A stretch of 64,000 nt of DNA from a virus: positions 26,333 to 90,332 of IMG/VR virus record IMGVR_UViG_3300032516_000013; one strand, given 5' to 3'. The position numbers were made by a program, and so were the translations under genes. The notes beneath the pieces were generated by a model. The model did not search any database. It was given only the letters and a program-made list of their open reading frames with translations, and was not told the origin of the DNA. This document shows positions 26,874-54,997 of this stretch, piece after piece (the first letter of the stretch is position 1; the number at the start of each line of letters is the position of its first letter).

Positions 26874-26939
26874 TTGTTTAAATTATTCCTCCTATCAAAT
26901 CCGGTGCTCCATTCATGTCTGCTCCACTCAGTAAGGCTG

Positions 26940-27530
26940 CTAAGAGATCCGGTAAATATGCCGCAGGTCTGCTCCACGCAGGTCTGCTCCACTCAGGTTT
27001 GCTTCATTCATGTCTGCTCCATACAGGTTGGCTTCACACAGGTTTGCTCCACGCAGGTTTGCTCCATTCATGTCTGCTCCACTCAGGTTTGCTCCATACA
27101 GGTCTGCTCCATACAGGTCTGCTCCAATCAGGTTTGCTCCACTCAGGTTTGCTCCATACAGGTTTGCTCCACTCAGGTTTGCTCCATTCATGTCTGCTCC
27201 ACTCAGGTTTGCTCCATACAGGTCTGCTCCATACAGGTTTGCTCCACACAGGTTTGCTCCACTCAGGTTTGCTCCACTCAGGTTTGCTCCATACAGGTTT
27301 GCTCCACTCAGGTTGGCTTCACGCAGGTCTGCTCCATACATGTCTGCTCCACTCAGGTTTGCTCCACTCAGGTTTGCTCCATACAGGTCTGCTTCACGCA
27401 GGTTGGCTTCACGCAGGTCTGCTCCATACAGGTCTGCTCTACTCAGGTTTGCTCCATACAAGTTAGCTTTAGCTTTTATTTCATAACCATTTACATTCAC
27501 ATTCACTTCTGTTTTCTTTTTATTTTTCAT
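26940..27530 (-). CDS. Pentapeptide-repeat protein, copy A (3' end appears frameshifted)
   Basis: A(N/D)LxG repeats encoded by 15-bp units. Confidence 0.85.
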   Translation of the reverse strand: MKNKKKTEVNVNVNGYEIKAKANLYGANLSRADLYGADLREANLREADLYGANLSGANLSGADMYGADLREANLSGANLYGANLSGANLSGANLCGANLYGADLYGANLSGADMNGANLSGANLYGANLSGANLIGADLYGADLYGANLSGADMNGANLRGANLCEANLYGADMNEANLSGADLRGADLRHIYRIS

Positions 27531-27539
27531 ATCTTCTCC

Positions 27540-27555
27540 TATTTGCCTATTTGCC
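27540..27555 (-). repeat. 8-bp tandem repeat (GGCAAATA)x2 in the 5' leader
   Basis: Counted directly. Confidence 0.8.
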
Positions 27556-27569
27556 TTCTCTCACTAATT

Positions 27570-27610
27570 AAATTATACGGGATGATTTAGAAAAAGCCAA
27601 ATGAAATCTT
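27570..27610 (-). promoter_or_regulatory. Repeated early promoter, copy 2
   Basis: CATTTGGCTTTTTCTAAATCATCCCGTATAATTTA. Confidence 0.7.
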
Positions 27611-27640
27611 AGGAAAAAGAAAAATTTATTTTGTTAATTT

Positions 27641-27663
27641 GTGAAACAAACAATTTGCTTCAC
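27641..27663 (-). repeat. Repeated stem-loop GTGAAGCAAA-TTG-TTTGTTTCAC
   Basis: Identical 23-mer at 27641, 54156, 55067 and 63918, each just after a gene end. Confidence 0.75.
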
Positions 27664-27692
27664 TTGTTAGTTAACCAATAACAACACCTAAA

Positions 27693-28166
27693 TTAACAAA
27701 AATTATTTCCATCTGTTCTTTTGTAATTTTTTGCTCCATTCATGTCTGCTCCATACATGTCTGCTCCACGCAGGTTTGCTCCACGCAGGTTTGCTCCATA
27801 CATGTCTGCTCCACTCAGGTTTGCTCTACTCAGGTTTGCTCCAATCAGGTTTGCTCCACGCAGGTTTGCTCCATTCATGTCTGCTCCATTCATGTCTGCT
27901 CCATACAGGTTTGCTCCACTCAGGTTTGCTCCACTCAGGTCTGCTCCACGCAGGTTTGCTCCATACAGGTCTGCTCCATTCATGTCTGCTCCATACAGGT
28001 TTGCTCCACGCAGGTTTGCTCCACGCAGGTTGGCTTCACTCAGGTTTGCTTCATACAGGTCTGCTCCACGCAGTTCTACTCCACGCAGGTTTGCTCCATG
28101 CAAGTTAGCTTTAGCTTTTATTTTATAACCATTTACGTTCACTTCTGTTTTCTTTTTATTTTTCAT
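27693..28166 (-). CDS. Pentapeptide-repeat protein, copy B (C-terminus frameshifted by one extra A)
   Basis: Same N-terminus as copy C; A6 instead of A5 before the conserved tail. Confidence 0.85.
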   Translation of the reverse strand: MKNKKKTEVNVNGYKIKAKANLHGANLRGVELRGADLYEANLSEANLRGANLRGANLYGADMNGADLYGANLRGADLSGANLSGANLYGADMNGADMNGANLRGANLIGANLSRANLSGADMYGANLRGANLRGADMYGADMNGAKNYKRTDGNNFC

Positions 28167-28175
28167 ATCTTCTCC

Positions 28176-28247
28176 TATTTGCCTATTTGCCTATTTGCCT
28201 ATTTGCCTATTTGCCTATTTGCCTATTTGCCTATTTGCCTATTTGCC
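28176..28247 (-). repeat. 8-bp tandem repeat (GGCAAATA)x9
   Basis: 72 bp, counted directly. Confidence 0.9.
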
Positions 28248-28260
28248 TTCTCTCACTAAT

Positions 28261-28300
28261 TAAATTATACGAGATGAATTGAGAAAACCAAATGAAATCT
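28261..28300 (-). promoter_or_regulatory. Repeated early promoter, copy 3
   Basis: CATTTGGTTTTCTCAATTCATCTCGTATAATTTA. Confidence 0.7.
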
Positions 28301-28315
28301 TAGAAAAAGAAAAAT

Positions 28316-28534
28316 TTATTTTTGCACTATTTCAATTCCCTCTGGCACAGAAATAGGTCTTGTTCCATCAAGTGAAAAAATGAAATTAAGGCTGAGATCT
28401 TTTCCTATCTTTTTCAGATTCTCTATCATTTCTCCTAAAGATTCTGGATCTTCAAGCAATCTACTTCTGCTTATGGTGATCCAGTATATCTTTCCAGGTT
28501 CAAGAGATTTTATGTCTTCGATTTCAATGTTCAT
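28316..28534 (-). CDS. Hypothetical protein
   Basis: 72-aa ORF. Confidence 0.55.
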   Translation of the reverse strand: MNIEIEDIKSLEPGKIYWITISRSRLLEDPESLGEMIENLKKIGKDLSLNFIFSLDGTRPISVPEGIEIVQK

Positions 28535-28543
28535 ATTACATCC

Positions 28544-29638
28544 TCACATCTTAATATCAAAAGCCTTTGCTCGACTCTCAATATCAAGACCCATTGTCTT
28601 ATAACCATATTCACTCTTTGCTATTTCTCTCATCATAACATCAAAAGGTATTTGATCCAACACATCTCCACACCATGCGCTTTGCTGAAGCGTCCTAAAA
28701 CAAACTGTTGTGCCAACTTTTTTCATTGCAGGAGTGGGTTGAGGATCTTCTCCCATATAGATGTGGTTAAGATTATATTTATTACCAACAAATCCTGGCA
28801 TATCATCACACCCACAGCAACCAAGACTATCTCCCATCCATCTTAAACGATTTTCCCCACAAAAGAAAGCTAATCCTAAATCTTTTGCTCTTGTTCTGAT
28901 CTTTGTAAAATGTTCTTCCAATAACCAAGTAGGATAACATAAATCGCCTCCCACTTGTTCCATTCCGGGAAGCTTGCCTTCATAGCATTTCATTCCTTCG
29001 ATTACAACACCATATACTCCAGCCTCTTTAGATTTAGGTAATGTAATATTCAATACATTGTCCAATTCCTCAATCATGTAAGGCTGGATTCGAACTATCA
29101 TTCTAGGCACTACTGCTGCTACCTTCTTGATTATCTCTAATCTTTGATAAAACGAAGGAGCACCAGGCTCAAGTTTATCATATTCTGGAGATACAAGTGA
29201 ATACTGAAAGCAGACATTGCACTTTGATAGCAAAGACAAATATTCCGGATTTGCTGGTAAAGCATGTTTTGTAGAAACAATCCAAGGATATTCTGTTTCA
29301 GCTAATATTTCCATGCATTGAAACATCCGACGCTTTTCCCTTTCAACGGGCTGAAAACAGTCTGACATACCCCCAAAATGCAGAGGAAATTTCCAATCAG
29401 AATCAATCCAGGAAACTTCATGCTTTCTTTCACCATCTATAAAGTTCCTTAATGCTTGAGGTCCTTCATCATTTTCAACTTCTACTTTAGTACCAATTAT
29501 TTCATCTTTTTTACGTCTCGTGAAGCAATAACGGCAGCCCGAAACGCAGCCTTTATAAGTATCAAATCTTACTGGATAATCACACAAAACTACTTGGGAA
29601 CCTGCTCTTGGCATTTTTATTCCTCCTTCTTTCCACAC
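28544..29638 (-). CDS. Radical SAM enzyme (spore photoproduct lyase-like clade)
   Basis: DTYKGCVSGCRYCF (CxxxCxxC), GGMSDCFQP.E, STK, LEPGAPS...R, VRIQP. Confidence 0.88.
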   Translation of the reverse strand: MWKEGGIKMPRAGSQVVLCDYPVRFDTYKGCVSGCRYCFTRRKKDEIIGTKVEVENDEGPQALRNFIDGERKHEVSWIDSDWKFPLHFGGMSDCFQPVEREKRRMFQCMEILAETEYPWIVSTKHALPANPEYLSLLSKCNVCFQYSLVSPEYDKLEPGAPSFYQRLEIIKKVAAVVPRMIVRIQPYMIEELDNVLNITLPKSKEAGVYGVVIEGMKCYEGKLPGMEQVGGDLCYPTWLLEEHFTKIRTRAKDLGLAFFCGENRLRWMGDSLGCCGCDDMPGFVGNKYNLNHIYMGEDPQPTPAMKKVGTTVCFRTLQQSAWCGDVLDQIPFDVMMREIAKSEYGYKTMGLDIESRAKAFDIKM

Positions 29639-29841
29639 ACCATTTCTATAATCATTTTCACAATCGGCTCCTTGCCATGTTCCTTCATATAAGCTTCCAC
29701 CTTCTCAAAATCATCGAGCCTAAAAATAAATGAGGTTGACATAAAGAGTTTAGCTCCCATTATTTCTGCAGCTCCAAAAATAGCATCTTTAACTCCTTTA
29801 TGCTTGAGTCCCGCCCAGGCCGGTGCTTTAAATCTATCCAT
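29617..29841 (-). CDS. Hypothetical protein
   Basis: Probable start MDRFK after GGAGGA; overlaps the rSAM start. Confidence 0.45.
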   Translation of the reverse strand: MDRFKAPAWAGLKHKGVKDAIFGAAEIMGAKLFMSTSFIFRLDDFEKVEAYMKEHGKEPIVKMIIEMVCGKKEE

Positions 29842-29842
29842 G

Positions 29843-30655
29843 CTATATTTCCTCCAAATGTTTCTTTGTTTGCCAATAATAATTTTCACAGTTGCCGCAG
29901 TCTTTGCAGTATCCGCTCTCAGGAGTACCACACATCGTAACCAACCGACCACCAATATTCTTCATTCTCTTCAACACGTATCTCATATACTCTGAAGTTG
30001 GGCACCAATAAGAATTTATATGACGAACTTTCCAAGTGTAAGCTATTCTTCCAAAATCTTTTCGATCAGAAAGTATACATATATTTTTATCCCAATCTTC
30101 TAAATTTTTTCTAACATTTTCCTGTTTCGGCGGCTTAATGGTTCCTGGCGGAAGTTGATCATAGTATGCCATGTATGTAAGGACGCAATTAACCCCCAAT
30201 GTAGTAATATTTCTTATAGCATGTTCTATATGCAGAAGATTTGTTGGAGAAACTCTAAGTCTAATAAACATCATATTTTCTGGAATTTTGGTTTCCCCAA
30301 ACATAAAAACAGGTTTTTCCTCTTTTGGATTCGCCGTAAATACAACAGGACCAGGAAAATCAAATTTTGGAATAGATGTATTGAAAAAGAAATGCTTATA
30401 CTGTTTTGCAGTTTCAATAACCAGATCTCTTTGAAGATTGCTGTCGTTTCCACAGTTTATGCGACATATTCCATCCCCAACTTCTTCTGATGTAGGAATG
30501 CTTGGTTGATCAATAGGAACATAAAATGCTCCAGGCCTGTTGTAGAAACATTGATTACATTGATTTCGACAAGGTCCTACTTGAGGAATACAATCGAACA
30601 AATTAGAACCTTCTTGTTTAGGATTTCGTTTGGTCATTTTTATTTTTCTCTGCAA
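29843..30655 (-). CDS. Divergent radical SAM-like Fe-S protein
   Basis: GPCRNQCNQCFY (CxxxCxxC) plus a C-terminal C..C..C cluster. Confidence 0.6.
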   Translation of the reverse strand: MQRKIKMTKRNPKQEGSNLFDCIPQVGPCRNQCNQCFYNRPGAFYVPIDQPSIPTSEEVGDGICRINCGNDSNLQRDLVIETAKQYKHFFFNTSIPKFDFPGPVVFTANPKEEKPVFMFGETKIPENMMFIRLRVSPTNLLHIEHAIRNITTLGVNCVLTYMAYYDQLPPGTIKPPKQENVRKNLEDWDKNICILSDRKDFGRIAYTWKVRHINSYWCPTSEYMRYVLKRMKNIGGRLVTMCGTPESGYCKDCGNCENYYWQTKKHLEEI

Positions 30656-30900
30656 GATATTTCAGAAATTTGTGTTGAATGTTCTCATTAAGCACATGTA
30701 TCGCCAGTTGTGTGTCAAAGATGTTCATATTTTTTAATAGTTTTATAAACCCTGGACGTAACCTCGTCATACCAATCTATTTTATTAGAACGAGTTATAA
30801 ACTCATAAACATCTTTTAGTAGTTTTAATACGTTTTTAGGTAGTGGTGTTGGTTTCATTTTTTCTTTAGACATATATATTCCTCAATCTATCTCCTAAAA

Positions 30901-31338
30901 TTAAAGGTTTTTACCTTTCTCAGTAAATGGTTTTACACAGTATGGGTATTTTTGAATTATTTCTTCAGCCTGCTTATTTAACTGAGAAATATCCAAACCT
31001 TCAGGATATTTGAGTGGTCTATCGTCTTCACAATTTCCCATAAGCATTGAGTCTCTTAATACAAAAAGACAGGCTATTGCTTTAATAATATGAAAGACAC
31101 CACTATCTGGATCAATATCTTCTCCTTCCCACCAAGCCATAAGATGTCGAATTACAGCATCATAATATACTGAAGATCTTACACCAACACTCCTATAATT
31201 GTGGGAACCATACTTACGACCACCTTCCATCATAGCCAAACCTAGTTCCATTAAAGGACCACATGGTACACAGTGAAAAGGAACTTTTTTAATTCCTAAT
31301 GCATCCTTTGGATTAGTTGGTTTAGTTTTTTCGATCAC
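30901..31338 (-). CDS. dATP/dGTP diphosphohydrolase-like protein (DUF5664-type)
   Basis: NPKD..G.KK.P, G..KYG..N.R, Y.DA..RHL.AWWEGED.DPDSG..H..A.A, DDRP. Confidence 0.8.
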   Translation of the reverse strand: MIEKTKPTNPKDALGIKKVPFHCVPCGPLMELGLAMMEGGRKYGSHNYRSVGVRSSVYYDAVIRHLMAWWEGEDIDPDSGVFHIIKAIACLFVLRDSMLMGNCEDDRPLKYPEGLDISQLNKQAEEIIQKYPYCVKPFTEKGKNL

Positions 31339-31355
31339 TATTAAACACCTCTAAT

Positions 31356-31562
31356 TTATTTCCTTAATTTTGCTAAAAACCAATTTAACATTTGCTTAAA
31401 CCAACTCAATTTCTTTTCTACAATCTCTTTTTCACATAAATTCTGAAATCTCTTTTTCAAAAGAAAAGTTTCAGCTACAAGATTTGCCTCATTCCGAACA
31501 GATCTAATTTGTTTTTTATTTAACAAAGGAAGTTCTTTGTATTTATACCAAGGAAACTTCAT
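31356..31562 (-). CDS. Hypothetical protein
   Basis: 68-aa ORF coupled to the sigma gene. Confidence 0.45.
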   Translation of the reverse strand: MKFPWYKYKELPLLNKKQIRSVRNEANLVAETFLLKKRFQNLCEKEIVEKKLSWFKQMLNWFLAKLRK

Positions 31563-32164
31563 TTTTGATCCTCTAAAATTCCTCTTACCCTAAATTGATG
31601 TCGAATTCTTAATAAAGCATCCTGTATATATTTTCTAACAGTTCCTTCAGGCATATCAAATAATTTTGATATTTTTTCACAAGAAAATTCTCTCTTGTAT
31701 CGAAGTAAAACTAAATTCAATTCTTTTTGTGTTAAAATTTCTTCTTTAACCAATTGTTCCAATGATTCTTGTATAAATTCATTCTCCAATTCTAAAAAAG
31801 CAGAATTATCTACTTCAACAGATTTCTGACTTAAAATAAACTCTTCTGGCATTGGCTTATACGGAAATTCCACCCTAATAGCACACTTCATATAAGCTAT
31901 CATACGAGCTATCATGAGATCTGAAGATTCTTCTAACTTAACTTTTAATAAACCATTATTCAATCCTATTAAAGCAGTCTGGTAAATATCCTCAGCATCT
32001 TCGTCCATTAAATGAGGACAAACTTTACGACAACCATGTACAACAGAAAGAACTAAATTATCCACTCTGGATAAAATTCTTTCAAACAATTGAGGATCTA
32101 ATTTTTCTTGGTACTCTAAAACTAATTCTTTCAACACACCTTTAAAAATCTTGTCCGATTCCAT
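31559..32164 (-). CDS. Sigma70-family RNA polymerase sigma factor
   Basis: EDIYQTALIGL (region 2); LT.KE..LVLLRY....S.EKIS......EGTV (region 4 HTH). Confidence 0.75.
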   Translation of the reverse strand: MESDKIFKGVLKELVLEYQEKLDPQLFERILSRVDNLVLSVVHGCRKVCPHLMDEDAEDIYQTALIGLNNGLLKVKLEESSDLMIARMIAYMKCAIRVEFPYKPMPEEFILSQKSVEVDNSAFLELENEFIQESLEQLVKEEILTQKELNLVLLRYKREFSCEKISKLFDMPEGTVRKYIQDALLRIRHQFRVRGILEDQK

Positions 32165-34130
32165 GTTGTCCTTTCTGTAAACATTTAGCTTTCCTCAATA
32201 ACATATTATACGAAGAAAGCTGCTCCTTTGAAACTCCAGTTTCAATTTTTTCTTCCCTTTTAACTTCCACACCAGCTAAACGTAAATATTCAGAGTTAAC
32301 AACATCTTTTGGTTTTGACATAGTTCTATTTAACAAATTCTTCATGATTTCTTGATCCGGAGGCATTATACATTTTTCAATAGCTCTTGTTACTGAGGCC
32401 GCCACAGAATCAGAAATATCCTTACTTCCTTTTAATACTATTTCTCTAGTGTTTCCATCTTCCAAAAATTCCAACTCTGCCACCTCTTCTGGATGATCAA
32501 TCATATTTTTATCTGAATCTTCTTCCAAGTTCTTCAACTCAAAATGAAGATAAGGATGCCAAGGACTACTCCATCTTTCTTCCAAAATTAAATTTCTAAA
32601 TCCCCTATAAATATTTGGATCCTTATCCACAGAAAAATAATCACAAGCTATTCCTGCTCTTTCCAATATTTGTTTATCACTCTCTGTAGCCAATCTTAAA
32701 TCAAAGGTACATTCTGCAATATTAAATCCATGAACACTCTTTAAATCTAATATCATCTTTCGAACCAATGCTAAAGGTATTCTGTCGCCAGGATAAGCTT
32801 TGATTCGAAGAGCAAAATCTGTTGCTGCCACAGGAACTTTTTCCACATGAAAAGTACCATCTGCATTCTCTACATTTTTTCTTGCCCAGCCAGAAATGCA
32901 AGACATTGCGAGTCCAAAGGCATCCCCATCCCCGGAATAAGCAAAGTCTCCGTGTATAAATCTAGGAACATTTCGTGGAATCTTAATTAAATTTAAATCC
33001 AAAAAATTCAACAAGTTTATGTCATCTTTTAATCCAACATTTAATGTCATAACTTTGACAGGATTTGGCTCTTCTGTAAAGCATTTCAAAATCAAACTCT
33101 CAGAAGGAAATAACTTTGTGGCTCGAATATGAGATACAGATATACCTCCGATATCTCGGAGACTTCCGTTCACATCCCGCAAAAACAGATCATAAAAATC
33201 CATCGGAACTCTGATAATTTGATATCCTGCTCGAGTAACTTGTTCTAATTCTTCTGGTGTTTCTACTATTTTTGGTGGGTTGTAAACATCTCCACAAGAC
33301 ACAGTAAACTCTTCCTTAGAAAAATCTGCTCTAGGTCTTGCCAACCAAAGAGGAACGTCTACAATAACAATGCTTTTAGAATTTTTGTACTTTGCTATAA
33401 AAGTATTCAAAAAAGATAATCTTTCCTGCTTTGAAGCAACCATAAAGAATCGGCCTATCGTTTCCTCATGTGTAACGAAACGAGATTCCAATCTTCTTCG
33501 AGCATTCTCATAAGCGGATACAACTTTTTCTCTTTGGATTTCTGAAGCTATTGGAGAATCTACTTCATCCAATAATGCAAGTATAATATGCTCCCCCTGC
33601 GAACCCCAGCCGGGAACAAAGGGAGAAGCAAAGGTATATTTAAAAAGAGGAAACTCCAATTTAGGATTTAATTCCGATCCACCTAAAAATCCTCTCTCCC
33701 TAAACCAAGGAGAATTTACCAAACAATTTTGAAACAACTTATATGCTGTACTTTCACTTTGACTCTTTGTCAAATTGAAAAACACAATAGACATCTGACT
33801 GCCTGGAGCTTTTCCAAAATATGCCCAAGGGTCTTTAAGACAAAGGACACGACACATTGTGTAAAGCATGCCATAAATCGCACAGAACGTCTTACCTATC
33901 CCAATCGCACCCGTTAGTACATAAACATATTTAGAATCCTCCTTAGCAACCAATTCAAGAGTATCTTTCCAAACCGGATAAACAGATTTTCCATTATTTG
34001 TCAATTTCCCCAGATATTGAGGACTAGAAAGAAATTCCTCCATACTAGGAGGCTGTTCCTTATAGTTAAGGCCAGTAACATAACTAAGATAGTTATGAAT
34101 CAAATCCTTTTTACTCATTCTTTGATTCAT
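32142..34130 (-). CDS. terL: Terminase large subunit
   Basis: Walker A GAIGIGKT, Walker B LALLDE, RNase H-like HGDF...GDA, IDHP and KDISDSVA. Confidence 0.85.
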   Translation of the reverse strand: MNQRMSKKDLIHNYLSYVTGLNYKEQPPSMEEFLSSPQYLGKLTNNGKSVYPVWKDTLELVAKEDSKYVYVLTGAIGIGKTFCAIYGMLYTMCRVLCLKDPWAYFGKAPGSQMSIVFFNLTKSQSESTAYKLFQNCLVNSPWFRERGFLGGSELNPKLEFPLFKYTFASPFVPGWGSQGEHIILALLDEVDSPIASEIQREKVVSAYENARRRLESRFVTHEETIGRFFMVASKQERLSFLNTFIAKYKNSKSIVIVDVPLWLARPRADFSKEEFTVSCGDVYNPPKIVETPEELEQVTRAGYQIIRVPMDFYDLFLRDVNGSLRDIGGISVSHIRATKLFPSESLILKCFTEEPNPVKVMTLNVGLKDDINLLNFLDLNLIKIPRNVPRFIHGDFAYSGDGDAFGLAMSCISGWARKNVENADGTFHVEKVPVAATDFALRIKAYPGDRIPLALVRKMILDLKSVHGFNIAECTFDLRLATESDKQILERAGIACDYFSVDKDPNIYRGFRNLILEERWSSPWHPYLHFELKNLEEDSDKNMIDHPEEVAELEFLEDGNTREIVLKGSKDISDSVAASVTRAIEKCIMPPDQEIMKNLLNRTMSKPKDVVNSEYLRLAGVEVKREEKIETGVSKEQLSSYNMLLRKAKCLQKGQHGIGQDF

Positions 34131-34839
34131 TTCCCTTATTCCCTTCCACAAATTCAGCATTTGTTGCTTCTTGAGCTAAATTTGTTAGTTGATGAATCAA
34201 TTTTTCTCTTTCCATAGGAGTCATTTCTTCCGCCTTTTTTGCTATTGATGATTCAACAGGAATCCCAGAAAGAGGAGGGTTGTTTTGTTGCTGATTAACA
34301 AATATGTAATTTTTGTCCCCCTTAGAAGTTGGCTCTCCTGATTCTGCTATAAACCCCATTTCTTTTGCAAATTTCATGAGATGCTCACTCTCTAATCTCA
34401 TATCTTTAATCAGGCGAAGCTTCAGATTTTCCAGGTCCAGATTCTTTGCTTTTGCAACATTACAAGTATTATTGCATTTTAAGCATCTGTAATAGATATT
34501 TCCCTCAATAGTTTCATGTTTATCTACAGGAAATTCACAACAAGCAGAGACTAAAGGTTCCTCCTTTCCATCCCAATGTGTGTATATTGCTTCCAGTTTA
34601 GCCTGCCGACTCATAGATTGTCGGAGAACCTCTTGAGCTAAATTACAAGCAACCCAATATTTGACATCTCTGTCCTGCTTAGTTTTAAACTTAACTAAAA
34701 TCTTATTGACAACAGAAACTGGAACATCAGTTCCCGCATAATTAGACGCTTCTTCTGCAACTCTATCCAAATTCTGTGGATATCTCAAAAGAAGAAATCT
34801 AATGTGCTCTTCTAACTTTAGTTTTACTATATTTCCCAT
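34111..34839 (-). CDS. Putative terminase small subunit
   Basis: Directly upstream of and overlapping terL; helical with a Cys cluster. Confidence 0.4.
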   Translation of the reverse strand: MGNIVKLKLEEHIRFLLLRYPQNLDRVAEEASNYAGTDVPVSVVNKILVKFKTKQDRDVKYWVACNLAQEVLRQSMSRQAKLEAIYTHWDGKEEPLVSACCEFPVDKHETIEGNIYYRCLKCNNTCNVAKAKNLDLENLKLRLIKDMRLESEHLMKFAKEMGFIAESGEPTSKGDKNYIFVNQQQNNPPLSGIPVESSIAKKAEEMTPMEREKLIHQLTNLAQEATNAEFVEGNKGNESKNE

Positions 34840-34840
34840 A

Positions 34841-35203
34841 TCAATTCTCTAAAACACAAAGAACATCAGATTCCCCACAAAGAACCACAACGTATTGCTT
34901 TCCATCCAACCCCTGAACCACTTGTTTCCAAGGCACTGTAATATCATAGTAAACCTTAACACCAGGTTTTAAAAGAGAAGAAACAGCTTTCCATTTACCT
35001 CTCTCATCATAAAATCCAGGACCTGCCGCTAAAAGAATTCCAATTCCCTCCTGATAAAAATCTTGGAATAATTTTGGAATTTCTATTAATCCTTTTTCCT
35101 GAAACTTTTCCGGTGGAGAAGATGGATAAATAAAAACTCGGTCTGCTGTAGGATTCCAATGGAAATTAATGTTTCCCTGTTCATCATGAAATGGTGTAAT
35201 CAT
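34841..35203 (-). CDS. GroES-like co-chaperonin (second, divergent)
   Basis: PTADRVFI...KGLIEIP...GILLAAGPG.....LKPG.KV.Y.......ESDVLCVL. Confidence 0.7.
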   Translation of the reverse strand: MITPFHDEQGNINFHWNPTADRVFIYPSSPPEKFQEKGLIEIPKLFQDFYQEGIGILLAAGPGFYDERGKWKAVSSLLKPGVKVYYDITVPWKQVVQGLDGKQYVVVLCGESDVLCVLEN

Positions 35204-35418
35204 TTATCCTCCAATTCTTGTTCAATAATTTCAAGAGTTGATAAATTGCCTGAAATACCATAATGTAAATCTAATAATTGTCCATTTTGTAATACCCACT
35301 CCAATGCTGCTTTCCACGCATGTTTTCTTTGACGTAAACAATCTCGTCCAATTGGGCCTCTTTCAATTGTTGGTGACAAAGGGTATTCTTTTGCATCCCA
35401 TTCTTCAAATGCTTTCAT
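35200..35418 (-). CDS. Hypothetical protein
   Basis: 72-aa coupled ORF. Confidence 0.5.
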   Translation of the reverse strand: MKAFEEWDAKEYPLSPTIERGPIGRDCLRQRKHAWKAALEWVLQNGQLLDLHYGISGNLSTLEIIEQELEDK

Positions 35419-35422
35419 AAAT

Positions 35423-36025: not shown

Positions 36026-36125
36026 TTTCTCTCACTCCCAATTCTTTTTCTCATCTTAAACTCAAATCTAGCAGATTTTAATGTTAAACAAGTCTCACAT
36101 TTACCACAAGCTTGAATTTTCGATT

Positions 36126-47887: not shown

Positions 47888-48092
47888 TCGTCTTCGGAAG
47901 CACTGTCATACCTTCCAATGTATGAATTCTATCTTCTAATTTAACAGCGTAAGCAAAGAGTTCGCAAATTGCGTTATCTCCTAAAAAGCTTCTCCAAGGA
48001 TTTGGTTCTCCAATTTTGTCGCAGCAAAGAACACCATTTTTGGATGTGTAAAATTTGTATCTGCCATGATCTAAATCAATTATTCGAATCAT
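47880..48092 (-). CDS. Hypothetical protein
   Basis: 70-aa coupled ORF. Confidence 0.5.
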   Translation of the reverse strand: MIRIIDLDHGRYKFYTSKNGVLCCDKIGEPNPWRSFLGDNAICELFAYAVKLEDRIHTLEGMTVLPKTIG

Positions 48093-48102
48093 TTTTGTCT
48101 CC

Positions 48103-49161
48103 TTAAGATCTCGCCTTAACTAAATAACGAAACTTATTTTCCAAAGAAAACAAAACAACTGAATTCTCTGCAAAATAACGAAACTCCAAACACAAACTAA
48201 CCACGTCTTTCAAAAGAACAGGATTAACACAGAACTCAAATTGTTTGCCTGTTCTCTTAGTTTTAAGAGGAACAACTTCCCTCAAACTTCTCTCCTTTTG
48301 TCCACCCACAATAAATTTCTGAGATGTGGTCTCCGCACTCTCTTCCAAAACAGTAAATTGCACTTCCTTATCCTCTCCAGAAACATCCTTCAAAAGACCC
48401 AAATGCCTTTCCAAAATACTGGGGAAACTATCATCCAAAGTTATTGTTTCGGCCCCTTCTCCATTTGGAAAGAATCCACTTAGATCTTTATACTCTCCTT
48501 CAATGGTAGTTGCCCATATTAATGTTCCATCCTTCAAAGTTATTCCAAAACAACCTCCAAAATTCTTCCCCGGAGCAAAACGCATCTTATCTATATCTCC
48601 CCGAAATTCATACAAAATACTAGCTAATCTGGCAGGAACGCAACAATTTAATCCTATAGGATTTTTAAGTTTCCAATTCAAAATCCTATATTTGTCACAA
48701 CTCCACAAAGAATCATCCTGTATCTTAACACCAGAAAGGAGACCAACAGTCTCATCCTTTGAAGTCCCCAATTGACAGAACCTTAATCCAGCTATAAAAT
48801 CCTCTAAATCCCCAACAATCACATCGCTACCATTCTCTGGAACAGCAACTGGAACAGGATCAGAAATAGCAAACTCGCCCTCCAAATTCTTAGCGGTGAT
48901 AAACATTTTCCCATCCCGCATATCCAAATCTAATTCCTTTGCAGAAAGCCGCTTCAAAAGAAAATAAAATGGTTCAGCCTGCACTCTCAAGTTTAATCTT
49001 ACACCCTCTGGAAGAATTGTATTTATGCATATGTTACCGTTTGTTGCTTGAAGTCTGTCATCACAAAAATTCAGAAGTTGATAATCTGGTGCTGACTTAG
49101 CACTTATAACAGGCATAACTCTTTCCAAGCAATCTAGCAAAACTTTTCTACTGACCTTCAT
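48103..49161 (-). CDS. dnaN: DNA polymerase sliding clamp, beta (DnaN)-like
   Basis: About 350 aa; L.ATN, LSGV, CD.YR, EG.Y.D, NP.LL.D three-domain pattern; next to pol and loader. Confidence 0.7.
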   Translation of the reverse strand: MKVSRKVLLDCLERVMPVISAKSAPDYQLLNFCDDRLQATNGNICINTILPEGVRLNLRVQAEPFYFLLKRLSAKELDLDMRDGKMFITAKNLEGEFAISDPVPVAVPENGSDVIVGDLEDFIAGLRFCQLGTSKDETVGLLSGVKIQDDSLWSCDKYRILNWKLKNPIGLNCCVPARLASILYEFRGDIDKMRFAPGKNFGGCFGITLKDGTLIWATTIEGEYKDLSGFFPNGEGAETITLDDSFPSILERHLGLLKDVSGEDKEVQFTVLEESAETTSQKFIVGGQKERSLREVVPLKTKRTGKQFEFCVNPVLLKDVVSLCLEFRYFAENSVVLFSLENKFRYLVKARS

Positions 49162-49172
49162 GTTTTCACCTT

Positions 49173-50141
49173 TCAAATTAAACATTCCTCTTTGATAAGT
49201 TGCCACACATTCTCAGCACCCCAACTATCGGGGTCCTCATTTACATGTTCTGTAAAACTCTTCCAAAAATAAGGAAGTTGAATAACAAAAACTTCATCAA
49301 TAAAAGGCATAAAGTATTGGGATTCTCTCTCCCCAATAAAATATGCGTCACCGTCGTAAGCAAAGATTAATTTTTTTGGTTTAAGTTTTATCAGCAATCT
49401 CTTCTGTTGTTCCGTCAAAGCAGTTCCAAAAGAAGCTAAAGTATTTCCTCCAAGCCTCCAAGCGTCTAGCAAACCTTCAACTATAATAACATAACCCAAA
49501 CTTCTATCCAACATATCCCAACGATAAAAATATTGCTTAATCTCACTATCTTTTGTATCCGCTTTATATTTTGACTCTGCCTTTCCTGTCATATCAGCTG
49601 CTTGAAATCCTATCAATTTTCCTTCAAAGAAAATAGGGGCAATCAGTCTATTCATATACTCGCCCACACAACAAATTCCACACTTATGTTCAATTAAAGT
49701 TTCTAAGGAAAGTTTTCTTCTCTTAATATAATCCTGCAACAAAAGAGAATCAACATTCTGAACCGGCTCAAAAAACTTAGGAAGTTGAATTGATCCTCGT
49801 TTCCATTTCTCTTCCTTCTCCTTAGGTTCCTCCCGAAATATCTTAAGAATTTGCTGCTCAGAATCCTGAATAAATGAAGAATCAGAAGATTGTATTATTT
49901 CTAACTGACAAAGTTCTTTTGGCCTATGAGTAATAACTGATAAAAGGTAAGCAAAATCTCCACTTTGCCCACATTTCCAACAATGGAATAATGTGGAATC
50001 CCTAAATATGCCGCAATGGTTGGACTGATCTGTACAAAGAGGACATTGAATATTTACAGAATTAGAAACATTTTTCCCTTCTGTCCAATAAGGAACAGAA
50101 TATTTTTCAAGAAGAGAAATAATAGTATTAATATAATCCAT
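49173..50141 (-). CDS. DNA primase (Zn finger + TOPRIM)
   Basis: CPLC.D...H......FHCWKCG; VEG..D, FG, YDGD, DPD. Confidence 0.88.
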   Translation of the reverse strand: MDYINTIISLLEKYSVPYWTEGKNVSNSVNIQCPLCTDQSNHCGIFRDSTLFHCWKCGQSGDFAYLLSVITHRPKELCQLEIIQSSDSSFIQDSEQQILKIFREEPKEKEEKWKRGSIQLPKFFEPVQNVDSLLLQDYIKRRKLSLETLIEHKCGICCVGEYMNRLIAPIFFEGKLIGFQAADMTGKAESKYKADTKDSEIKQYFYRWDMLDRSLGYVIIVEGLLDAWRLGGNTLASFGTALTEQQKRLLIKLKPKKLIFAYDGDAYFIGERESQYFMPFIDEVFVIQLPYFWKSFTEHVNEDPDSWGAENVWQLIKEECLI

Positions 50142-50142
50142 A

Positions 50143-50412
50143 TTAAAATCTATTTTTATCCATTCCTCTTACTGGATGTGGGATTAAATTCTCATAACGC
50201 GTTTTTGAGGCGGCTATATACAAGAGTTCATGTAATTTATCTCTACTCCAGCCAAACCCCAAAAGTTTTAACCTAAATTTTTCCAATTCCCCTTCTAAAC
50301 CATTTAAAAGAAGATCATGAAAATCTAGCAAGGCACGAAAATGTAATATGACAGATCGTTCATTCAAATAATCAACTTGGGCTGGTTCAGGCAAAATATA
50401 ATAATTGCTCAT
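50143..50412 (-). CDS. Hypothetical protein
   Basis: Coupled ORF. Confidence 0.5.
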   Translation of the reverse strand: MSNYYILPEPAQVDYLNERSVILHFRALLDFHDLLLNGLEGELEKFRLKLLGFGWSRDKLHELLYIAASKTRYENLIPHPVRGMDKNRF

Positions 50413-51620
50413 AAATTATCCTCCACATCTCCTTGTTCTTTTTCCATCTTCTTATCTTGATCCATTAAGAATTCCTCAGATTTGTGTTTTAAGCAAGTCC
50501 AATTTCCATTTCTATCAGTAAACCAAACAACTACTCCTTCTCTCAAAGTGTTGGCATCTAAAGTAGATCTGCCTTTAGCATAAAATTGAACATTGTCTAC
50601 TATTCCGTCTACAGTTGTCAAGGCAATATTACGTCCAGAATTAGTAAACATAAAAGGTTTTTCTAATCCCAGTTCTCCTGCACGATGATATACTTGTTCT
50701 CTATTTAAGTCTACTGTAAAACCATTAGGAGTAGTTATAGTAACTCTATACAGCATGCACTTAAACTCACCAGGTCGACAATTGTATGGATACCCTTCTT
50801 GAATCATAGATCCATTTACATCATACCCGTATATTTCGTAATAGATCTCTTCCCCTTTGTGAAGGTGAGGAGCAACTTTACGTTCAATTTCTGCTCGAAC
50901 TTGTGGAATATGATTATTTATACTATCAAATCTGCGAATTCCTGAAACAATTCTCCATGTAGGTTCTGATTTTCTCCAGCATCTCCACCACTTTTTACCT
51001 ACGGGACAAAGAACATTCCCTGTCCTTCCAGAAGTTCCATGAATCTTTTCTTCAATATAGCAAACAGCATCTTCAGGAATATCATCCAACTGTCTCATCA
51101 GTTGCTTTGTATCCCAATGCTTGTGGAACATATCAGAAATAGGCTTTGAAGGCTGTCCTGGACATCCTTTTATTGAAACAATATATTTGCTACAAATTTC
51201 AATTCCATTTATGTGTGTAAATTCTGTACCTTCTGGAAGATTTATCTCTAATGTTTGCACAGATGGACCTTGCAAAGGAAGGCACAATAAACTTGATAAT
51301 TCTGCAACATACCCATTACTCATCTCTCCACGAAACTTCTGTGCTCTGACTTTACCATCCTTACCAAAACGCCCTTTCTTTGTGGAATCAACGTTCATTT
51401 CTGAACTGGAATATAAATTGTTCCAACGAAGATAATCGTGGGATAATCGTAAGTTGGAATCAAAATAGATAACCAAATCGTCATCTTTTACATCCAAACC
51501 CACAATCACAGTAGTTCCTAAAATGGTAGCAAGCTGTAAACGATCCGCATTGGGGTGCTTTCTTACGTTTTTCAAGCGAGTAATTACAGCATTATTTGTT
51601 TCTGATTTAGTTAACATCAA
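50409..51620 (-). CDS. RNA ligase (DRB0094/Rnl2-like, with N-terminal OB domain)
   Basis: HPNADRL, K.RG..S.G, EEKIHGT, E.YG, REGVV, LK.KS..F. Confidence 0.85.
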   Translation of the reverse strand: MMLTKSETNNAVITRLKNVRKHPNADRLQLATILGTTVIVGLDVKDDDLVIYFDSNLRLSHDYLRWNNLYSSSEMNVDSTKKGRFGKDGKVRAQKFRGEMSNGYVAELSSLLCLPLQGPSVQTLEINLPEGTEFTHINGIEICSKYIVSIKGCPGQPSKPISDMFHKHWDTKQLMRQLDDIPEDAVCYIEEKIHGTSGRTGNVLCPVGKKWWRCWRKSEPTWRIVSGIRRFDSINNHIPQVRAEIERKVAPHLHKGEEIYYEIYGYDVNGSMIQEGYPYNCRPGEFKCMLYRVTITTPNGFTVDLNREQVYHRAGELGLEKPFMFTNSGRNIALTTVDGIVDNVQFYAKGRSTLDANTLREGVVVWFTDRNGNWTCLKHKSEEFLMDQDKKMEKEQGDVEDNL

Positions 51621-51873
51621 ATTCCTCTAGCAACATATTCATGTCTTGAGCAGAAATACAGACTTGAAATCCGTTATGATTTCTTCCCATAATATCTATA
51701 CAAAAATCTTTTTCGTAAGGATAGTTTTCTAGCAAATCTCCTATATAATACGAAACAGGCCAGCCAAAATCCAGAACCATTCTATTTTTATCAAATTCTG
51801 AATTTCTCAAAATAACTTTCTTCTTGAATTTATTTCCCATTGTATCAAAGGCTTTTATTTCAATTTCTTTCAT
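51607..51873 (-). CDS. Hypothetical protein
   Basis: 88-aa ORF. Confidence 0.5.
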   Translation of the reverse strand: MKEIEIKAFDTMGNKFKKKVILRNSEFDKNRMVLDFGWPVSYYIGDLLENYPYEKDFCIDIMGRNHNGFQVCISAQDMNMLLEEFDVN

Positions 51874-51874
51874 A

Positions 51875-52327
51875 TTAATCCCACCAAGTTCTTACCTGCT
51901 TTTTTATTATACGAAGCAAAAGATCAATATCCTGTTGAATCATTTTTTCTTTATATTTAAAACCCCAATCAATATATTTTCTTTCTAAATCCGTGCAATT
52001 ATCAACAAGTCTTAAAACACCTTTTCCTTCATCTACAAAATCAAATTGATCAAAAGCTTTAAAATTTCGATCTTCCCAAGGAGAAGTATAATCCTCTTCT
52101 ATCAATCTCTTGCAAAGAAGTTTGCATATCCTAACCTGCTTCGCCACATGTTTAGCATCAGCAGACATTGCCATATTTGAATTATAAAACTCTTCCATCA
52201 ATTGAAACTTAAACTGCAACAAACTAAAAAGAAAACATTCATCCCAGGGTTGATCTCTCCAAATGACAGGAAGCCATCTAGCAAGAAGAACTATCTTCCT
52301 AAAGAATCTTCGAATCCTCCAAATCAT
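51875..52327 (-). CDS. Conserved hypothetical phage protein
   Basis: W.P.IW.D..WD...WWD pattern. Confidence 0.6.
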   Translation of the reverse strand: MIWRIRRFFRKIVLLARWLPVIWRDQPWDECFLFSLLQFKFQLMEEFYNSNMAMSADAKHVAKQVRICKLLCKRLIEEDYTSPWEDRNFKAFDQFDFVDEGKGVLRLVDNCTDLERKYIDWGFKYKEKMIQQDIDLLLRIIKKQVRTWWD

Positions 52328-52614
52328 CTCACATCCTCCAGTGAAGAAGAATCCAAAGTGCTCACAGATCCATTCTCTCTCTTTTTAACATCCTCATAAG
52401 GAGCGGCAATTTGACGATAAAGTTCCAACTTTGCACATTCAAGAATACCAATAACTTCATTTATCCGAGCATATTTTAAACCAAGTCCCTGAAGATATAA
52501 ATGAATCAGTTTGGTGATTGCATAATTCATCTGCCCACAATGACCAATACTTTTAATCATTTCATTTAGAAGTTTGTCAATTTCTTCTCTTTCAAGTTGT
52601 CTTACGTAGGGCAT
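52324..52614 (-). CDS. Conserved hypothetical phage protein
   Basis: MPY...G..NY.IT....Y..IN..IG.LECAK.E.YR....PYED.K...NG. Confidence 0.65.
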   Translation of the reverse strand: MPYVRQLEREEIDKLLNEMIKSIGHCGQMNYAITKLIHLYLQGLGLKYARINEVIGILECAKLELYRQIAAPYEDVKKRENGSVSTLDSSSLEDVR

Positions 52615-52625
52615 ATTTTCTCCTA

Positions 52626-53153
52626 TTAATCCTCTATTAATTGAAAATAAGTTTCCAAAACATCTTTACAAATGCTATAATAATTACTCTCTTTTAGTTC
52701 TTCTTCCAAAAAGACAAAGTATCTTATATCTCCATCATATCTATCGTCTTCCCCAGCATAACCAATTGAGTAAGTAGAACCAACAACACCTTCTCTCTCA
52801 TTACCAAAATCAAACTCCTTTATACATTGATATTTCTGAACAGAATCTAAAGCACTTTTAAGCTGAACTTCTTCAAATTTTTCGTCTTCCTGAACCTGTT
52901 GAGCAGATTCTCGATAACTATGTATTGCTTCTTCCAAGATTCCCAATGCTTCATAATGACTACGAGAAGCCCAATTTACTATTTCAAAAATAAGAAGGGA
53001 AGCTGCACCAGATTTAAAACCATTAGAACTATCTGGTATTTGCTGAAATAAATTAATAAGCCTTTCTTTCTCAACTTCAATATCGTCCCAAGTTATTGTT
53101 TCAAATATATTTTCAGGCATTATAATTCCTCCGTTTCTAAACCAAAGCAACAT
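52626..53153 (-). CDS. Hypothetical acidic protein
   Basis: ORF; probable start MPENI. Confidence 0.55.
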   Translation of the reverse strand: MLLWFRNGGIIMPENIFETITWDDIEVEKERLINLFQQIPDSSNGFKSGAASLLIFEIVNWASRSHYEALGILEEAIHSYRESAQQVQEDEKFEEVQLKSALDSVQKYQCIKEFDFGNEREGVVGSTYSIGYAGEDDRYDGDIRYFVFLEEELKESNYYSICKDVLETYFQLIED

Positions 53154-53199
53154 ACCCCTCGTAATATGTGCTGATGGGTATGCTCTCTGGCAAACATAC

Positions 53200-54123
53200 T
53201 TATCGATACAATTCAGCTACTACATAAGCCCTGGAAAGCTTCTCTCCGGTACTCGAACCAATACCTGTGGCTCCGTTAAAGACACTTGTTGAACCAGCAG
53301 TCTGAGCACCACCACCACCCAAAACTGCTGAGCTAACCTTCGTCACTGGATTCGAAAAGGTTCGAAATACAACCAGTTTGGCACCGGCCTCTGCAGCCTT
53401 AACTGCCATAGCAGCCATTGCCTGATGCTCACTCTTACAAAGCTTCTTCGAATATGCCTGAGCCTCACCTATCTTTGTCATGTTTGTGGCAACATAGTCG
53501 GAAGACACAACTACTCGAATTCGACTAACTGCCTTCTCCTTAGTAAAAACAGCTACTTCAACCTGATAAGTGCTTTCCCAATCCGACCACAAAATACTAA
53601 GGCAACGACCAGGATTTGCAAATCTAGTCAGCTCTGTAACTGTGTACTCAGCACGCTGGAGCTTAAACATGCTTGTGGTCATTGTAAGCTCATCACCAAT
53701 CGTCCGGTACATAGGAGCTACTGAACCTGGAGCCAAAAGCTGTGTCGGATTAATTGTGGTATCAGTAATTGAAACACTGTTGCCATGATTTGTAGCACTG
53801 CTGTTGTTCTCGTTAGCATTTGCATTCTCGTTGCTGTTCTCGTTAACGTTCTCATTGGTGTTTTCGTTAGTGTTCTTAACACTATTTTTGACGTTGTTCG
53901 TAATATCATTGTTGTTCTTCACATCAACATCAATCTTGTTGGTATTGGTAGTATCACCAATCCGAACTGAACCCCCATCTCCACCTTCAGCAGTAACATT
54001 ACCAATACTCTGGGTTTGATCTTGCTTATTCAACCCAGGAGGATCACCCTGAGGAGTTCCATAACTCACATTCACTGACCAAAACAATCCAACCAACAAA
54101 ACTACTGCAATTAACTTCTTCAT
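53200..54123 (-). CDS. Secreted/exported protein with an Asn-rich low-complexity segment
   Basis: Signal peptide MKKLIAVVLLVGLF...; N-x-N-E repeats; GGGAGGA RBS. Confidence 0.7.
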   Translation of the reverse strand: MKKLIAVVLLVGLFWSVNVSYGTPQGDPPGLNKQDQTQSIGNVTAEGGDGGSVRIGDTTNTNKIDVDVKNNNDITNNVKNSVKNTNENTNENVNENSNENANANENNSSATNHGNSVSITDTTINPTQLLAPGSVAPMYRTIGDELTMTTSMFKLQRAEYTVTELTRFANPGRCLSILWSDWESTYQVEVAVFTKEKAVSRIRVVVSSDYVATNMTKIGEAQAYSKKLCKSEHQAMAAMAVKAAEAGAKLVVFRTFSNPVTKVSSAVLGGGGAQTAGSTSVFNGATGIGSSTGEKLSRAYVVAELYR

Positions 54124-54155
54124 CTTACAATCCTCCCAAATAAATTAATACTTTT

Positions 54156-54178
54156 GTGAAACAAACAATTTGCTTCAC
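54156..54178 (-). repeat. Repeated stem-loop
   Basis: Identical 23-mer. Confidence 0.75.
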
Positions 54179-54185
54179 TTGTTAG

Positions 54186-54935
54186 TTAACCAATAACAAC
54201 ACCTAAATTAACAAAAATTATTTCCATCTGTTCTTTTGTAATTTTTGCTCTACTCATGTTTGCTCCATACATGTCTGCTCCATTCATGTCTGCTCCACGC
54301 AGGTTGGCTTCACGCAGGTTTGCTCCACTCAGGTCTGCTTCACACATGTCTGCTCCACGCAGGTCTGCTCCACGCAGGTCTGCTCCACGCAGGTCTGCTC
54401 CACGCAGGTCTGCTTCACTCAGGTTTGCTCCATACAGGTTTGCTCCACGCAGGTTGGCTTCACGCAGGTTTGCTCCACTCAGGTCTGCTCCATACAGGTC
54501 TGCTTCACACAGGTTGGCTTCACACAGGTCTGCTCCACTCAGGTTTGCTCCACTCAGGTTTGCTTCATACAGGTCTGCTCCATACAGGTCTGCTTCACGC
54601 AGGTTTGCTCCACTCAGGTTTGCTTCATACAGGTCTGCTCCATACAGGTTTGCTTCACGCAGGTCTGCTCCATACAGGTCTGCTTCACTCAGGTTTGCTC
54701 CATACAGGTTTGCTCCACGCAGGTTGGCTTCACGCAGGTTTGCTCCACTCAGGTCTGCTCCATTCATGTCTGCTCCACGCAGGTCTGCTCCACGCAGGTC
54801 TGCTCCACGCAGGTCTGCTCCACGCAGGTCTGCTCCACTCAGGTCTGCTCCATACAGGTCTGCTTCACGCAAGTTAGCTTTAGCTTTTATTTTATAACCA
54901 TTTACGTTCACTTCTGTTTTCTTTTTATTTTTCAT
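54186..54935 (-). CDS. Pentapeptide-repeat protein, copy C (intact tail)
   Basis: About 42 A(N/D)Lx(G/E) repeats, tail [20 protein letters not shown]. Confidence 0.9.
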
Positions 54936-54944
54936 ATCTTCTCC

Positions 54945-54984
54945 TATTTGCCTATTTGCCTATTTGCCTATTTGCCTATTTGCC
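54945..54984 (-). repeat. 8-bp tandem repeat (GGCAAATA)x5
   Basis: 40 bp, counted directly. Confidence 0.9.
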
Positions 54985-54997
54985 TTCTCTCACTAAT

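Follow-up and report, generated by a model that had tools for sequence, protein, structure and literature searches.

Paralogous pentapeptide-repeat genes with reshuffled unit arrays in an uncultured sediment phage

Background

Can a phage vary the surface of a protein family by reshuffling short repeats within several copies of one gene? The question is raised by a 64,000-bp stretch of DNA (the window: bases 26333-90332 of the 90,332-bp IMG/VR contig IMGVR_UViG_3300032516_000013; positions below are those of the window) from an uncultured sediment phage. It carries three full genes for pentapeptide-repeat proteins (PRPs), here named A, B and C, and the tail of another, D; a further copy, E, lies on a second contig, IMGVR_UViG_3300032516_005626. 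An earlier reading made from the letters alone (the sequence-only reading) took them for length-variable genes built from a shared pool of 15-bp units, and for a diversifying system that produces DNA-mimic or decoy proteins. We consider, with moderate confidence, that they are paralogous genes for beta-helical proteins, duplicated as cassettes of the promoter-early stem-loop (PeSL) type, in which slippage and recombination of units together with diversifying selection would give rise to rod-shaped proteins, perhaps made early and directed against host defences.

Phage PRPs, 15-bp insertions and deletions, PeSLs and one anti-defence PRP are known already. What is new here is the combination of these known ingredients, its quantitative signature and an 8-bp microsatellite in the leader. 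A single genome displays what looks like the signature of a rapidly changing repertoire: independently promoted copies, homogenised units, scrambled order and an excess of amino-acid change at outward positions.

A common pool of 15-bp units

TRF reports arrays of period 15 with 32.9 copies in A, 24.6 in B and 41.7 in C, and a regular expression for the unit finds three clusters only (33, 22 and 41 matches) across the whole 90,332-bp contig. The four arrays that could be cut into units, that of E included, yield 129 units (A 34, B 25, C 42 and E 28), which comprise 34 distinct 15-mers and 26 distinct pentapeptides of the pattern A-(D/N)-(L/M)-X-(G/E). The unit formula proposed earlier, with its list of variable residues (Y/S/R/C/N/I/H), is exact over the 129 units, the variable codon being CGT in 42, TAT in 32, AGT in 32, AAT in 11, TGT in 7, ATT in 3, and CAT and CGG in one each.

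The units are spelled almost uniformly, and in a manner that differs from the rest of the genome. All 72 Asn codons are AAC and all 56 Asp codons are GAC, compared with 21% and 13% genome-wide. Leu is written CTG in 106 of 110 cases (TTG in the other 4), with Met ATG at the same position in 19 units; genome-wide, CTG makes up 6% of Leu codons and CGT 13% of Arg codons. Ala is GCA in 107 cases, GCC in 17 and GCT in 4, and Gly is GGA in 95 and GGG in one. The G+C content of the arrays is 0.52-0.56 versus about 0.35 for the genome. When each gene's first unit and the broken last unit of A are dropped, the remaining 124 units have a synonymous diversity (piS) of 0.066 and a nonsynonymous diversity (piN) of 0.210, that is, a piN/piS of 3.19, and four of the five codon columns have a piS at or close to zero. 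The claim that there is almost no synonymous drift is thus borne out by both the 34 distinct 15-mers and the low piS. The single common synonymous variant, GCC, stands in the context GAA-GCC-AAC in 16 of 17 cases, which argues that variants spread by block copying and not by independent mutation.

Change is distributed unevenly within the unit. The opening Ala is nearly invariant, the middle residue is always L or M, and variation otherwise falls on the remaining three positions. Solved PRP structures have the Ala and the middle residue facing into the helix and the remaining three facing out; the variable residues, which had been placed on the surface by the sequence-only reading, match these outward positions. 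The same arrangement is described in general terms in PMC10886550. A four-unit periodicity matching the helix faces was considered and rejected, since no consistent autocorrelation at lag 4 was found.

The order of the units is not shared between copies. The longest run of identical consecutive units between any two genes is 1-2, no more than in 500 shuffles of unit order (P 0.43-1.0), in keeping with the earlier description of one pool of units whose order differs between copies. Within arrays, duplicated runs reach five units in C (P 0.002) and four in E (0 of 500 shuffles). The flanks, by comparison, are identical over 67 nt at the starts of B and C, and over 86 nt and 127 nt in the tails with their hairpins. 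Identical flanks around scrambled arrays imply that the arrays rearrange much faster than they mutate, that the flanks are held alike by conversion, or both.

Protein fold and possible targets

All three full genes of the window score far above the PF00805 cut-off of 20.2 bits (A 285.9, B 186.5 and C 280.1 bits; E-values 3e-87, 4e-56 and 2e-85), and the genes of 196, 157 and 249 aa and the tail of D are present as first described. The exact sequence of C is found in the ESM Atlas, where its model (pTM 0.89, pLDDT 0.91) matches PRP solenoid clusters with TM 0.89-0.92 over residues 5-249, one of the clusters being 75% viral. PDB sequence matches of C are PRP structures, including Qnr, QnrB1, MfpA and McbG-like proteins. 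The profile matches, the structure matches and the model of C agree that these are pentapeptide beta-helix proteins, as had been proposed. PHROGs places C in families of unknown function. A homology search with residues 1-40 of C recovered no relative of the N-terminus, its candidates (3851 of 4693 at E<=0.01) being dominated by the repeat. The repeat also has to be kept in mind for the Alr5209 profile NF052603 (cut-off 125), against which A scores 237.2, C 195.3 and B 117.6; these scores are summed over four to five repeated stretches of a 113-position profile and therefore reflect the repeat, not orthology.

The named relatives suggest a gyrase-directed role, which we infer to be the main rival to the reading of these proteins as defence inhibitors or decoys. 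The PRPs would then be topoisomerase modulators of the Qnr and MfpA kind, which bind gyrase or topoisomerase IV of the host (or of the phage) and either retune supercoiling in favour of phage replication or shield the enzyme from toxins that poison gyrase, with dose and fit adjusted through the number and length of the copies. The sequence matches to Qnr, QnrB1, MfpA and McbG-like structures speak for it, and so does the tail of C, which is colinear with the C-terminus of Qnr: over its final 70 aa, C can be aligned with the very end of Qnr chains (146-214 of 216 in 3pss, 149-215 of 217 in QnrB1). According to PMC10886550, PRP dimers join through C-terminal helices and bind gyrase, and phage peptides that inhibit gyrase are described there as well; CKA15_017 of a Listeria phage is annotated in PMC12282133 as PRP-like and similar to gyrase inhibitors. 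The family cut-offs, however, are far from reached. C attains 97.5 bits (A 75.2, B 55.1) against the 240 set for Qnr (NF033086), and 92.6 bits (A 73.2, B 69.1) against the 360 set for MfpA (NF000349). In addition, one conserved target would leave both the multiple copies with scrambled surfaces and a piN/piS above 3 unexplained. We regard a topoisomerase target as unlikely, if with some force, and continue with the reading of the PRPs as rods directed against host defences.

State of the gene copies

The PRP genes of the window, like nearly all genes there, lie on the minus strand. C (54186-54935; 249 aa) is the only one of the three full genes whose tail is intact, its 42 units being followed by 19 aa. 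The same tail and a stop codon occupy the last 53 nt of the window (63948-64000), where the contig end cuts gene D. Copy E, at the start of the second contig, is intact too, with 171 aa from its start codon in an open frame of 177 codons; its N-terminus is shorter than those of the window copies. Among all copies, only C, D and E have an intact Qnr-like C-terminal tail.

The other two copies are altered at their 3' ends. B (27693-28166; 157 aa, 25 units) has a run of six A residues where C has five, just before the tail, and the resulting frameshift leads to an early end in another frame. A -1 ribosomal frameshift at this run was considered and rejected, since it would not restore the tail, for which +1 is needed. 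A transmembrane tail was likewise judged unlikely, with about 12 hydrophobic residues only. In A (26940-27530; 196 aa, 34 units), the frame of the array is lost to foreign sequence and a stop; downstream of this stop stands a 27-nt out-of-frame remnant of the array (26905-26931, minus strand), and then, directly, the ribosome-binding site of a pyridoxal-phosphate (PLP) enzyme gene. A has neither the tail nor the downstream hairpin. The near-identical N-terminus noted by the sequence-only reading is indeed common to the copies, but that of A carries a 6-bp duplication. Promoter, Shine-Dalgarno sequence and ATG are retained in every copy.

Promoter and stem-loop cassettes

Alignment of the intergenic regions reveals a cassette with a constant order: an upstream stop codon, a 23-nt hairpin, an AT-rich tract, a block ending in TATAAT, a shared leader, the CAAATAGG repeat, 7 bases and the ATG. 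The last CAAATAGG unit runs into the Shine-Dalgarno sequence AGGAG, so the 5' untranslated region (5'UTR) contains a microsatellite, (CAAAUAGG)n, that ends in the ribosome-binding site. A leader shared by A, B and C had been noted before; it is common to the three, but it is actually a perfect 8-bp tandem repeat, present on the minus strand in 2 copies at A (27538-27553), 9 perfect copies at B (28174-28248) and 5 perfect copies at C (54943-54985). The units are 100% identical to one another, and the copy number (2, 9, 5) differs between the paralogs; the leader of E is without the expanded repeat. No other perfect repeat of 6-12 bp with at least 4 copies was found in the main contig or the other loci fetched. 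The leader RNA of C is predicted to be essentially unstructured. A leader microsatellite of this kind, if it proves variable, would be an uncommon viral example of expression tuned by repeats.

The promoter and adjoining leader are contained in a 23-mer that occurs in four exact copies in the window, all on the minus strand, versus none in 100 shuffles, and in three copies on the second contig. It lies at 27556-27578 before A, where the promoter scan reads it as TTGGCT-17-TATAAT with 10 of 12 matches, at 28248-28270 before B as an exact copy, and at 54985-55007 before C, where it holds the TATAAT -10 box. The fourth copy (63834-63856) precedes a non-PRP open reading frame (ORF) after D and is not accompanied by the 8-bp repeat. 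It is this sigma-70-like promoter that leads us to infer that the PRPs may be expressed early.

The hairpin is found after B, C and D and before C, again on the minus strand. Its 10-bp fold has a predicted energy of -10.2 kcal/mol (z -2.65), and none of 200 shuffles was as stable. The copy upstream of C (55067-55089) follows a methyltransferase stop codon, and the copy after C (54156-54178), directly after the stop, is a direct repeat of it, so that C is flanked on both sides by the same 23 nt. The copy between B and A (27641-27663) lies within a stretch of 127 nt that is repeated exactly after D, whose own hairpin is at 63918-63940. In T4-type phages, the PeSL cassettes described by Arbiol et al. 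flank accessory genes and mediate their shuffling (PMC2839356, PMC4122927).

Origin of the arrays

These features can be brought together in a single scheme. Each gene would be a PeSL-like transcription unit of its own, and whole PRP copies would spread by homologous recombination between the repeated stem-loop and promoter blocks. The arrays may then expand, contract and become scrambled through replication slippage and out-of-register recombination, within and between copies, and the same recombination and slippage of units would also keep the 15-bp spelling uniform. Selection would keep the inward Ala, permit only L or M at the centre and favour change at the three outward positions, and some copies (A and B) would decay. 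The protein made would have a short Lys-rich N-terminus, 25-42 units forming about 6-10 helix coils, and the 19-aa tail that aligns with the dimerising C-terminal end of Qnr. The 8-bp repeat and the 6-bp duplication in A indicate that slippage is active at the PRP loci.

Several observations count against this scheme or the role proposed for its products. Of the window's three full copies, A and B lack an intact tail and look degraded. No reading frame is interrupted within the arrays, so that an open frame by itself is weak evidence of a gene. The promoter consensus scan called only one of the three PRP promoters, that of A, and missed those of B and C; the terminator scan called no site at the PRP loci, which is explained by the absence of a T-run abutting the stem. 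The junction from B to A crosses the 127-nt repeat, and the B-A order thus depends on how the assembler resolved it. The DNA mimicry of the sequence-only reading suits the acidic products of A, C and E (pI 4.5-4.7, net charge -6 to -13); that of B, by contrast, is basic (pI 9.4), so this part of the proposal does not fit all copies. An identical tandem PRP pair (196 and 176 aa) is found in three different contigs (L103, L137 and L152), from which it follows that not every phage PRP array is unstable. Finally, no PRP is present in the fragments examined of three phages related by their DNA polymerase (42-51% identity), which thus provide no conserved context.

Some of these points are equally part of a case for decay, in which the loci are mostly non-functional repeat DNA that was acquired once, amplified along with the cassette and is now degenerating, its patterns being products of mutation and recombination bias. 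The truncated A, the frameshifted B, the open frames, a codon usage foreign to the genome and the PRP-free fragments of the polymerase relatives all suit such a history. What it does not account for is the distribution of change within the unit, with inward Ala fixed, L or M at the centre, variation at the outward positions and a piN/piS of 3.19. Nor does it sit well with the promoter, Shine-Dalgarno sequence and ATG kept in all copies, the intact tails of C, D and E, or the recurrence of the same architecture in many other phage contigs. We find it improbable and retain duplication with unit reshuffling under selection.

Since repeats of this kind are difficult to assemble, the contigs themselves have to be weighed. 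The main contig is about 58% complete by CheckV and the 35.7-kb second contig 23%, which amounts to a recovery of about 81% if the two are summed. The last 91 nt of the main contig are the first 91 nt of the second, and D may therefore be E; the earlier identification of D as a further copy is right as to the tail at the window end, but D and E may be one gene. The overlap makes it probable that both contigs belong to a single genome of roughly 155 kb, in which they lie next to each other, and there are at least four, perhaps five, PRP copies in about 126 kb. The 127 nt inward from the main contig end (63874-64000) are identical to the block that spans the tail of B and the region upstream of A. 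A k of 127 is a usual maximum of metagenome assemblers, and the contig end is accordingly read as an assembly break induced by the repeat.

The unit order or the tandem B-A arrangement could on these grounds be partly an artefact of short-read assembly. The contig does end inside D exactly at the 127-nt repeat, and comparable difficulties are documented elsewhere: marine viral long reads contain 26 times more PRPs than assemblies (PMC9238414), vibriophage gene 24_60 required PCR and Sanger sequencing (bioRxiv 10.1101/2024.07.02.601686), and the array of the Rheinheimera phage Barba29S contains ambiguous bases. Within the arrays the situation is different. The longest exact repeat within or between them is 89 bp, shorter than a k of 127, which makes a unique assembly path plausible, and the arrays are probably correct as assembled. 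Each gene also has single-copy flanks on both sides within one contig. Read-level data were taken from the k=31 Logan contigs of one sediment metagenome run, probably the source sample. Over the arrays these are fragments of 70-86 nt, and several array segments are reproduced with no differences; at this k the 8-bp repeat collapses. A single Logan contig without the extra A of B carried 7 other differences and probably derives from another copy. An artefactual origin of the unit order is, in our view, very improbable. Separately, low-depth Logan pieces over 26400-28800 contain units with a CTT Leu codon and His or Tyr that are absent from the assembled copies; these CTT-spelled variants hint at further copies or co-occurring strains.

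Diversity-generating retroelements (DGRs) introduce any-base substitutions at template adenines. Dedicated, enzyme-driven diversification of the arrays (DGR-like, nuclease-driven or recombinase-driven) is scarcely credible: the part still lacking from a genome that is about 81% recovered might encode an accessory enzyme, but the reverse transcriptase profile PF00078 has no match in either contig (90 kb and 35.7 kb) whereas control genomes matched, the variable sites are mostly two-state (A/G, G/A, C/A), unlike the DGR pattern, and no DGR template repeat is apparent for the arrays. Independence from reverse transcriptase (RT) had been asserted by the sequence-only reading and is upheld over these 126 kb or so. 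Its notion of a dedicated diversifying system is not: nothing points to one, and slippage and unequal recombination, with duplication through the cassette repeats, would suffice.

A possible role in counter-defence

What might such proteins do? We tentatively put forward, as a serious possibility, that PRP rods are made early and bind a host defence protein of the DNA-binding or phage-sensing kind; carrying several copies with different surfaces would then insure the phage against variation in its host targets. A precedent, the only experimental one found, comes from vibriophage 24, in which deletion of the PRP gene 24_60 results in high sensitivity to the RexAB-like defence Sucellos, and phages that escape Sucellos carry Y112R and N115D in 24_60 (bioRxiv 10.1101/2024.07.02.601686). 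With this precedent and the DNA-modification genes in the neighbourhood, an anti-defence role is plausible for the PRPs described here, and PRP rods in general may be nominated as adaptable phage inhibitors of host proteins. The modification-gene neighbours fit a counter-defence setting.

A bolder extension would make the PRP cassettes phage contingency genes, in which the 8-bp repeat sets expression and the 15-bp arrays reshuffle surface and length, as an RT-free form of bet-hedging against host defences. We consider this rather doubtful. If it were true, the phage population would always include some variant fit to block a host defence or DNA-handling protein not met before, and the scheme might extend to phage PRP genes generally, that is, to GC-rich, codon-homogenised arrays in AT-rich genomes.

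Genomic context

The window also encodes a DNA polymerase, a DnaB-like helicase, sigma-like factors and DNA methyltransferases. By megablast, the segment 26000-34000 has no match in 50,697 cultured phage records, and exact DNA patterns of the promoter, N-terminus and tail recovered only one further IMG/VR contig, which is the one that carries E. A and B stand in a run of DNA-modification-type genes (24254-31338), with a radical-SAM-like protein and a dATP/dGTP diphosphohydrolase on one side and the PLP enzyme, a Dam-type methylase and an Nlig-Ia protein on the other. The pair has modification genes on both flanks, as the earlier description of a tandem pair inside a modification cluster has it; its insertion there is putative. 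No relatives of the PLP and radical-SAM-like neighbours were found in three related contigs or in an IMG/VR scan. C lies downstream of an N6/N4 DNA methyltransferase gene (55109-56596), whose product is fused to a C-terminal Mrr_cat or NA-iREase1-like domain. Two small proteins (31559-32164 and 62159-62704) match sigma-70 region-4 or sigma-factor profiles; with such proteins, the phage may redirect transcription after an initial use of host-type promoters.

PRP arrays in other phages

A protein search of the 50,697 cultured phage records found PRP matches in 465, including 110 Rheinheimera Barba isolates. PRPs are therefore common in phages; nearly all are annotated as being of unknown function, and they are under-recovered in short-read assemblies, as the marine long-read data of PMC9238414 indicate.

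In six Barba isolates whose flanks are 99.7-100% identical (over 1600 nt on the upstream side and 700 nt on the downstream side), gp043, their PF00805 gene, measures 618, 603, 558, 558 (with a different sequence) and 513 nt, and 677 nt in a frameshifted version; a seventh isolate is without the gene. All in-frame differences in length (-15, -60, -60 and -105 nt) are multiples of 15. Variation between near-identical phages, of the sort for which the sequence-only reading proposed to look, is thus seen in phages other than the one described here. The Barba array has a G+C content of 0.66 against 0.37 for its locus, and it came from the protein search, independently of any DNA pattern. In Barba6A, two repeat-protein genes lie near each other among small hypothetical genes. 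The neighbouring NTGN-type repeat gene, gp041, is 978 nt long in six isolates and 993 nt in Barba31A. A literature search, supplements excluded, found no report on pentapeptide length variation in Rheinheimera phages. These cultured phages offer a ready system for the study of natural PRP length variants. A comparable difference is reported for phages L and ST64T, which are more than 99.9% identical and differ at two sites, one of which is a 15-bp deletion of a pentapeptide unit in a gene of the early left operon (bioRxiv 10.1101/2020.10.05.325894).

A degenerate DNA pattern of three units proved unspecific, matching at least 118 metagenome stretches and 33 viral stretches that hold generic PRPs and are biased in codon usage by the pattern itself. 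The loci fetched with it include small phage PRPs with a related tail of the type AK(I/F)...Q.E..L..LG(I/V)(I/V), as well as tandem PRP paralogs that share termini and differ in length (206 and 315 aa in L004; three copies in L041). PRP arrays of AT-rich phages are GC-rich (0.50-0.66 versus 0.34-0.43), use CTG and AAC/GAC nearly exclusively and contain few distinct units; most of the loci concerned (L033, L136, L148, L037, L004, L081, L043, L130, L020, L123, L152 and L161) are biased by the codon pattern, and L161 is not.

Comparison with known systems

The PRP loci share features with several known systems and coincide with none of them. Qnr, MfpA, McbG and AlbG are right-handed beta-helices of A(D/N)LXX units like the proteins described here, and their C-terminal segment aligns with the tail; of the four copies for which charge was computed, A, C and E are acidic. 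The genes of the window phage differ from them in being multicopy, length-variable, carried by a phage and below the family cut-offs.

In the PeSLs of T4-type phages, a stem-loop and a sigma-70-like early promoter lie between a stop codon and the next Shine-Dalgarno sequence, and repeats throughout the genome flank accessory genes and are the substrate of recombination (PMC2839356, PMC4122927). The stem-loop is shared by the loci described here; their TATAAT-bearing 23-mer would be the counterpart of the promoter, and its copies on the two contigs may correspond to the dispersed repeats. The PeSL hairpin is of polyG/polyC type, unlike the AT-rich one described here, and for the window phage the likeness is one of sequence. 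Contingency loci with simple sequence repeats (SSRs), for example those in 5'UTR and intergenic regions of Haemophilus influenzae (PMC12721329), also have a perfect short repeat between promoter and start codon, with copy numbers that differ between copies and with repeats in coding regions as well. They are bacterial and not phage-borne, and the copy numbers compared here are those of paralogs.

A likeness in defence is offered by vibriophage 24_60, also a phage PRP with repeats that are hard to assemble. The gain-of-function changes of its escapers, Y to R and N to D, are the kinds of alternation seen at the variable positions of the window phage. Unlike the genes described here, 24_60 occurs singly, and what it counters is a membrane abortive-infection system, not a DNA enzyme; the two are compared by description only.

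Barba gp043 and orf232 of the P22-like phages L and ST64T are, like A, B and C, small PF00805 proteins encoded among small early-type genes, with length differences in multiples of 15 nt, which in their case separate near-identical phages. Barba gp043 further resembles the window genes in its uniform, GC-rich array codons and in having a second repeat-protein gene nearby; its C-terminal domain differs from the tail of the window copies. In both of these systems there is one PF00805 gene per genome, with no dispersed promoter and stem-loop cassettes and no 8-bp leader repeat. Arrays that are fully scrambled between paralogs are a feature of the window phage.

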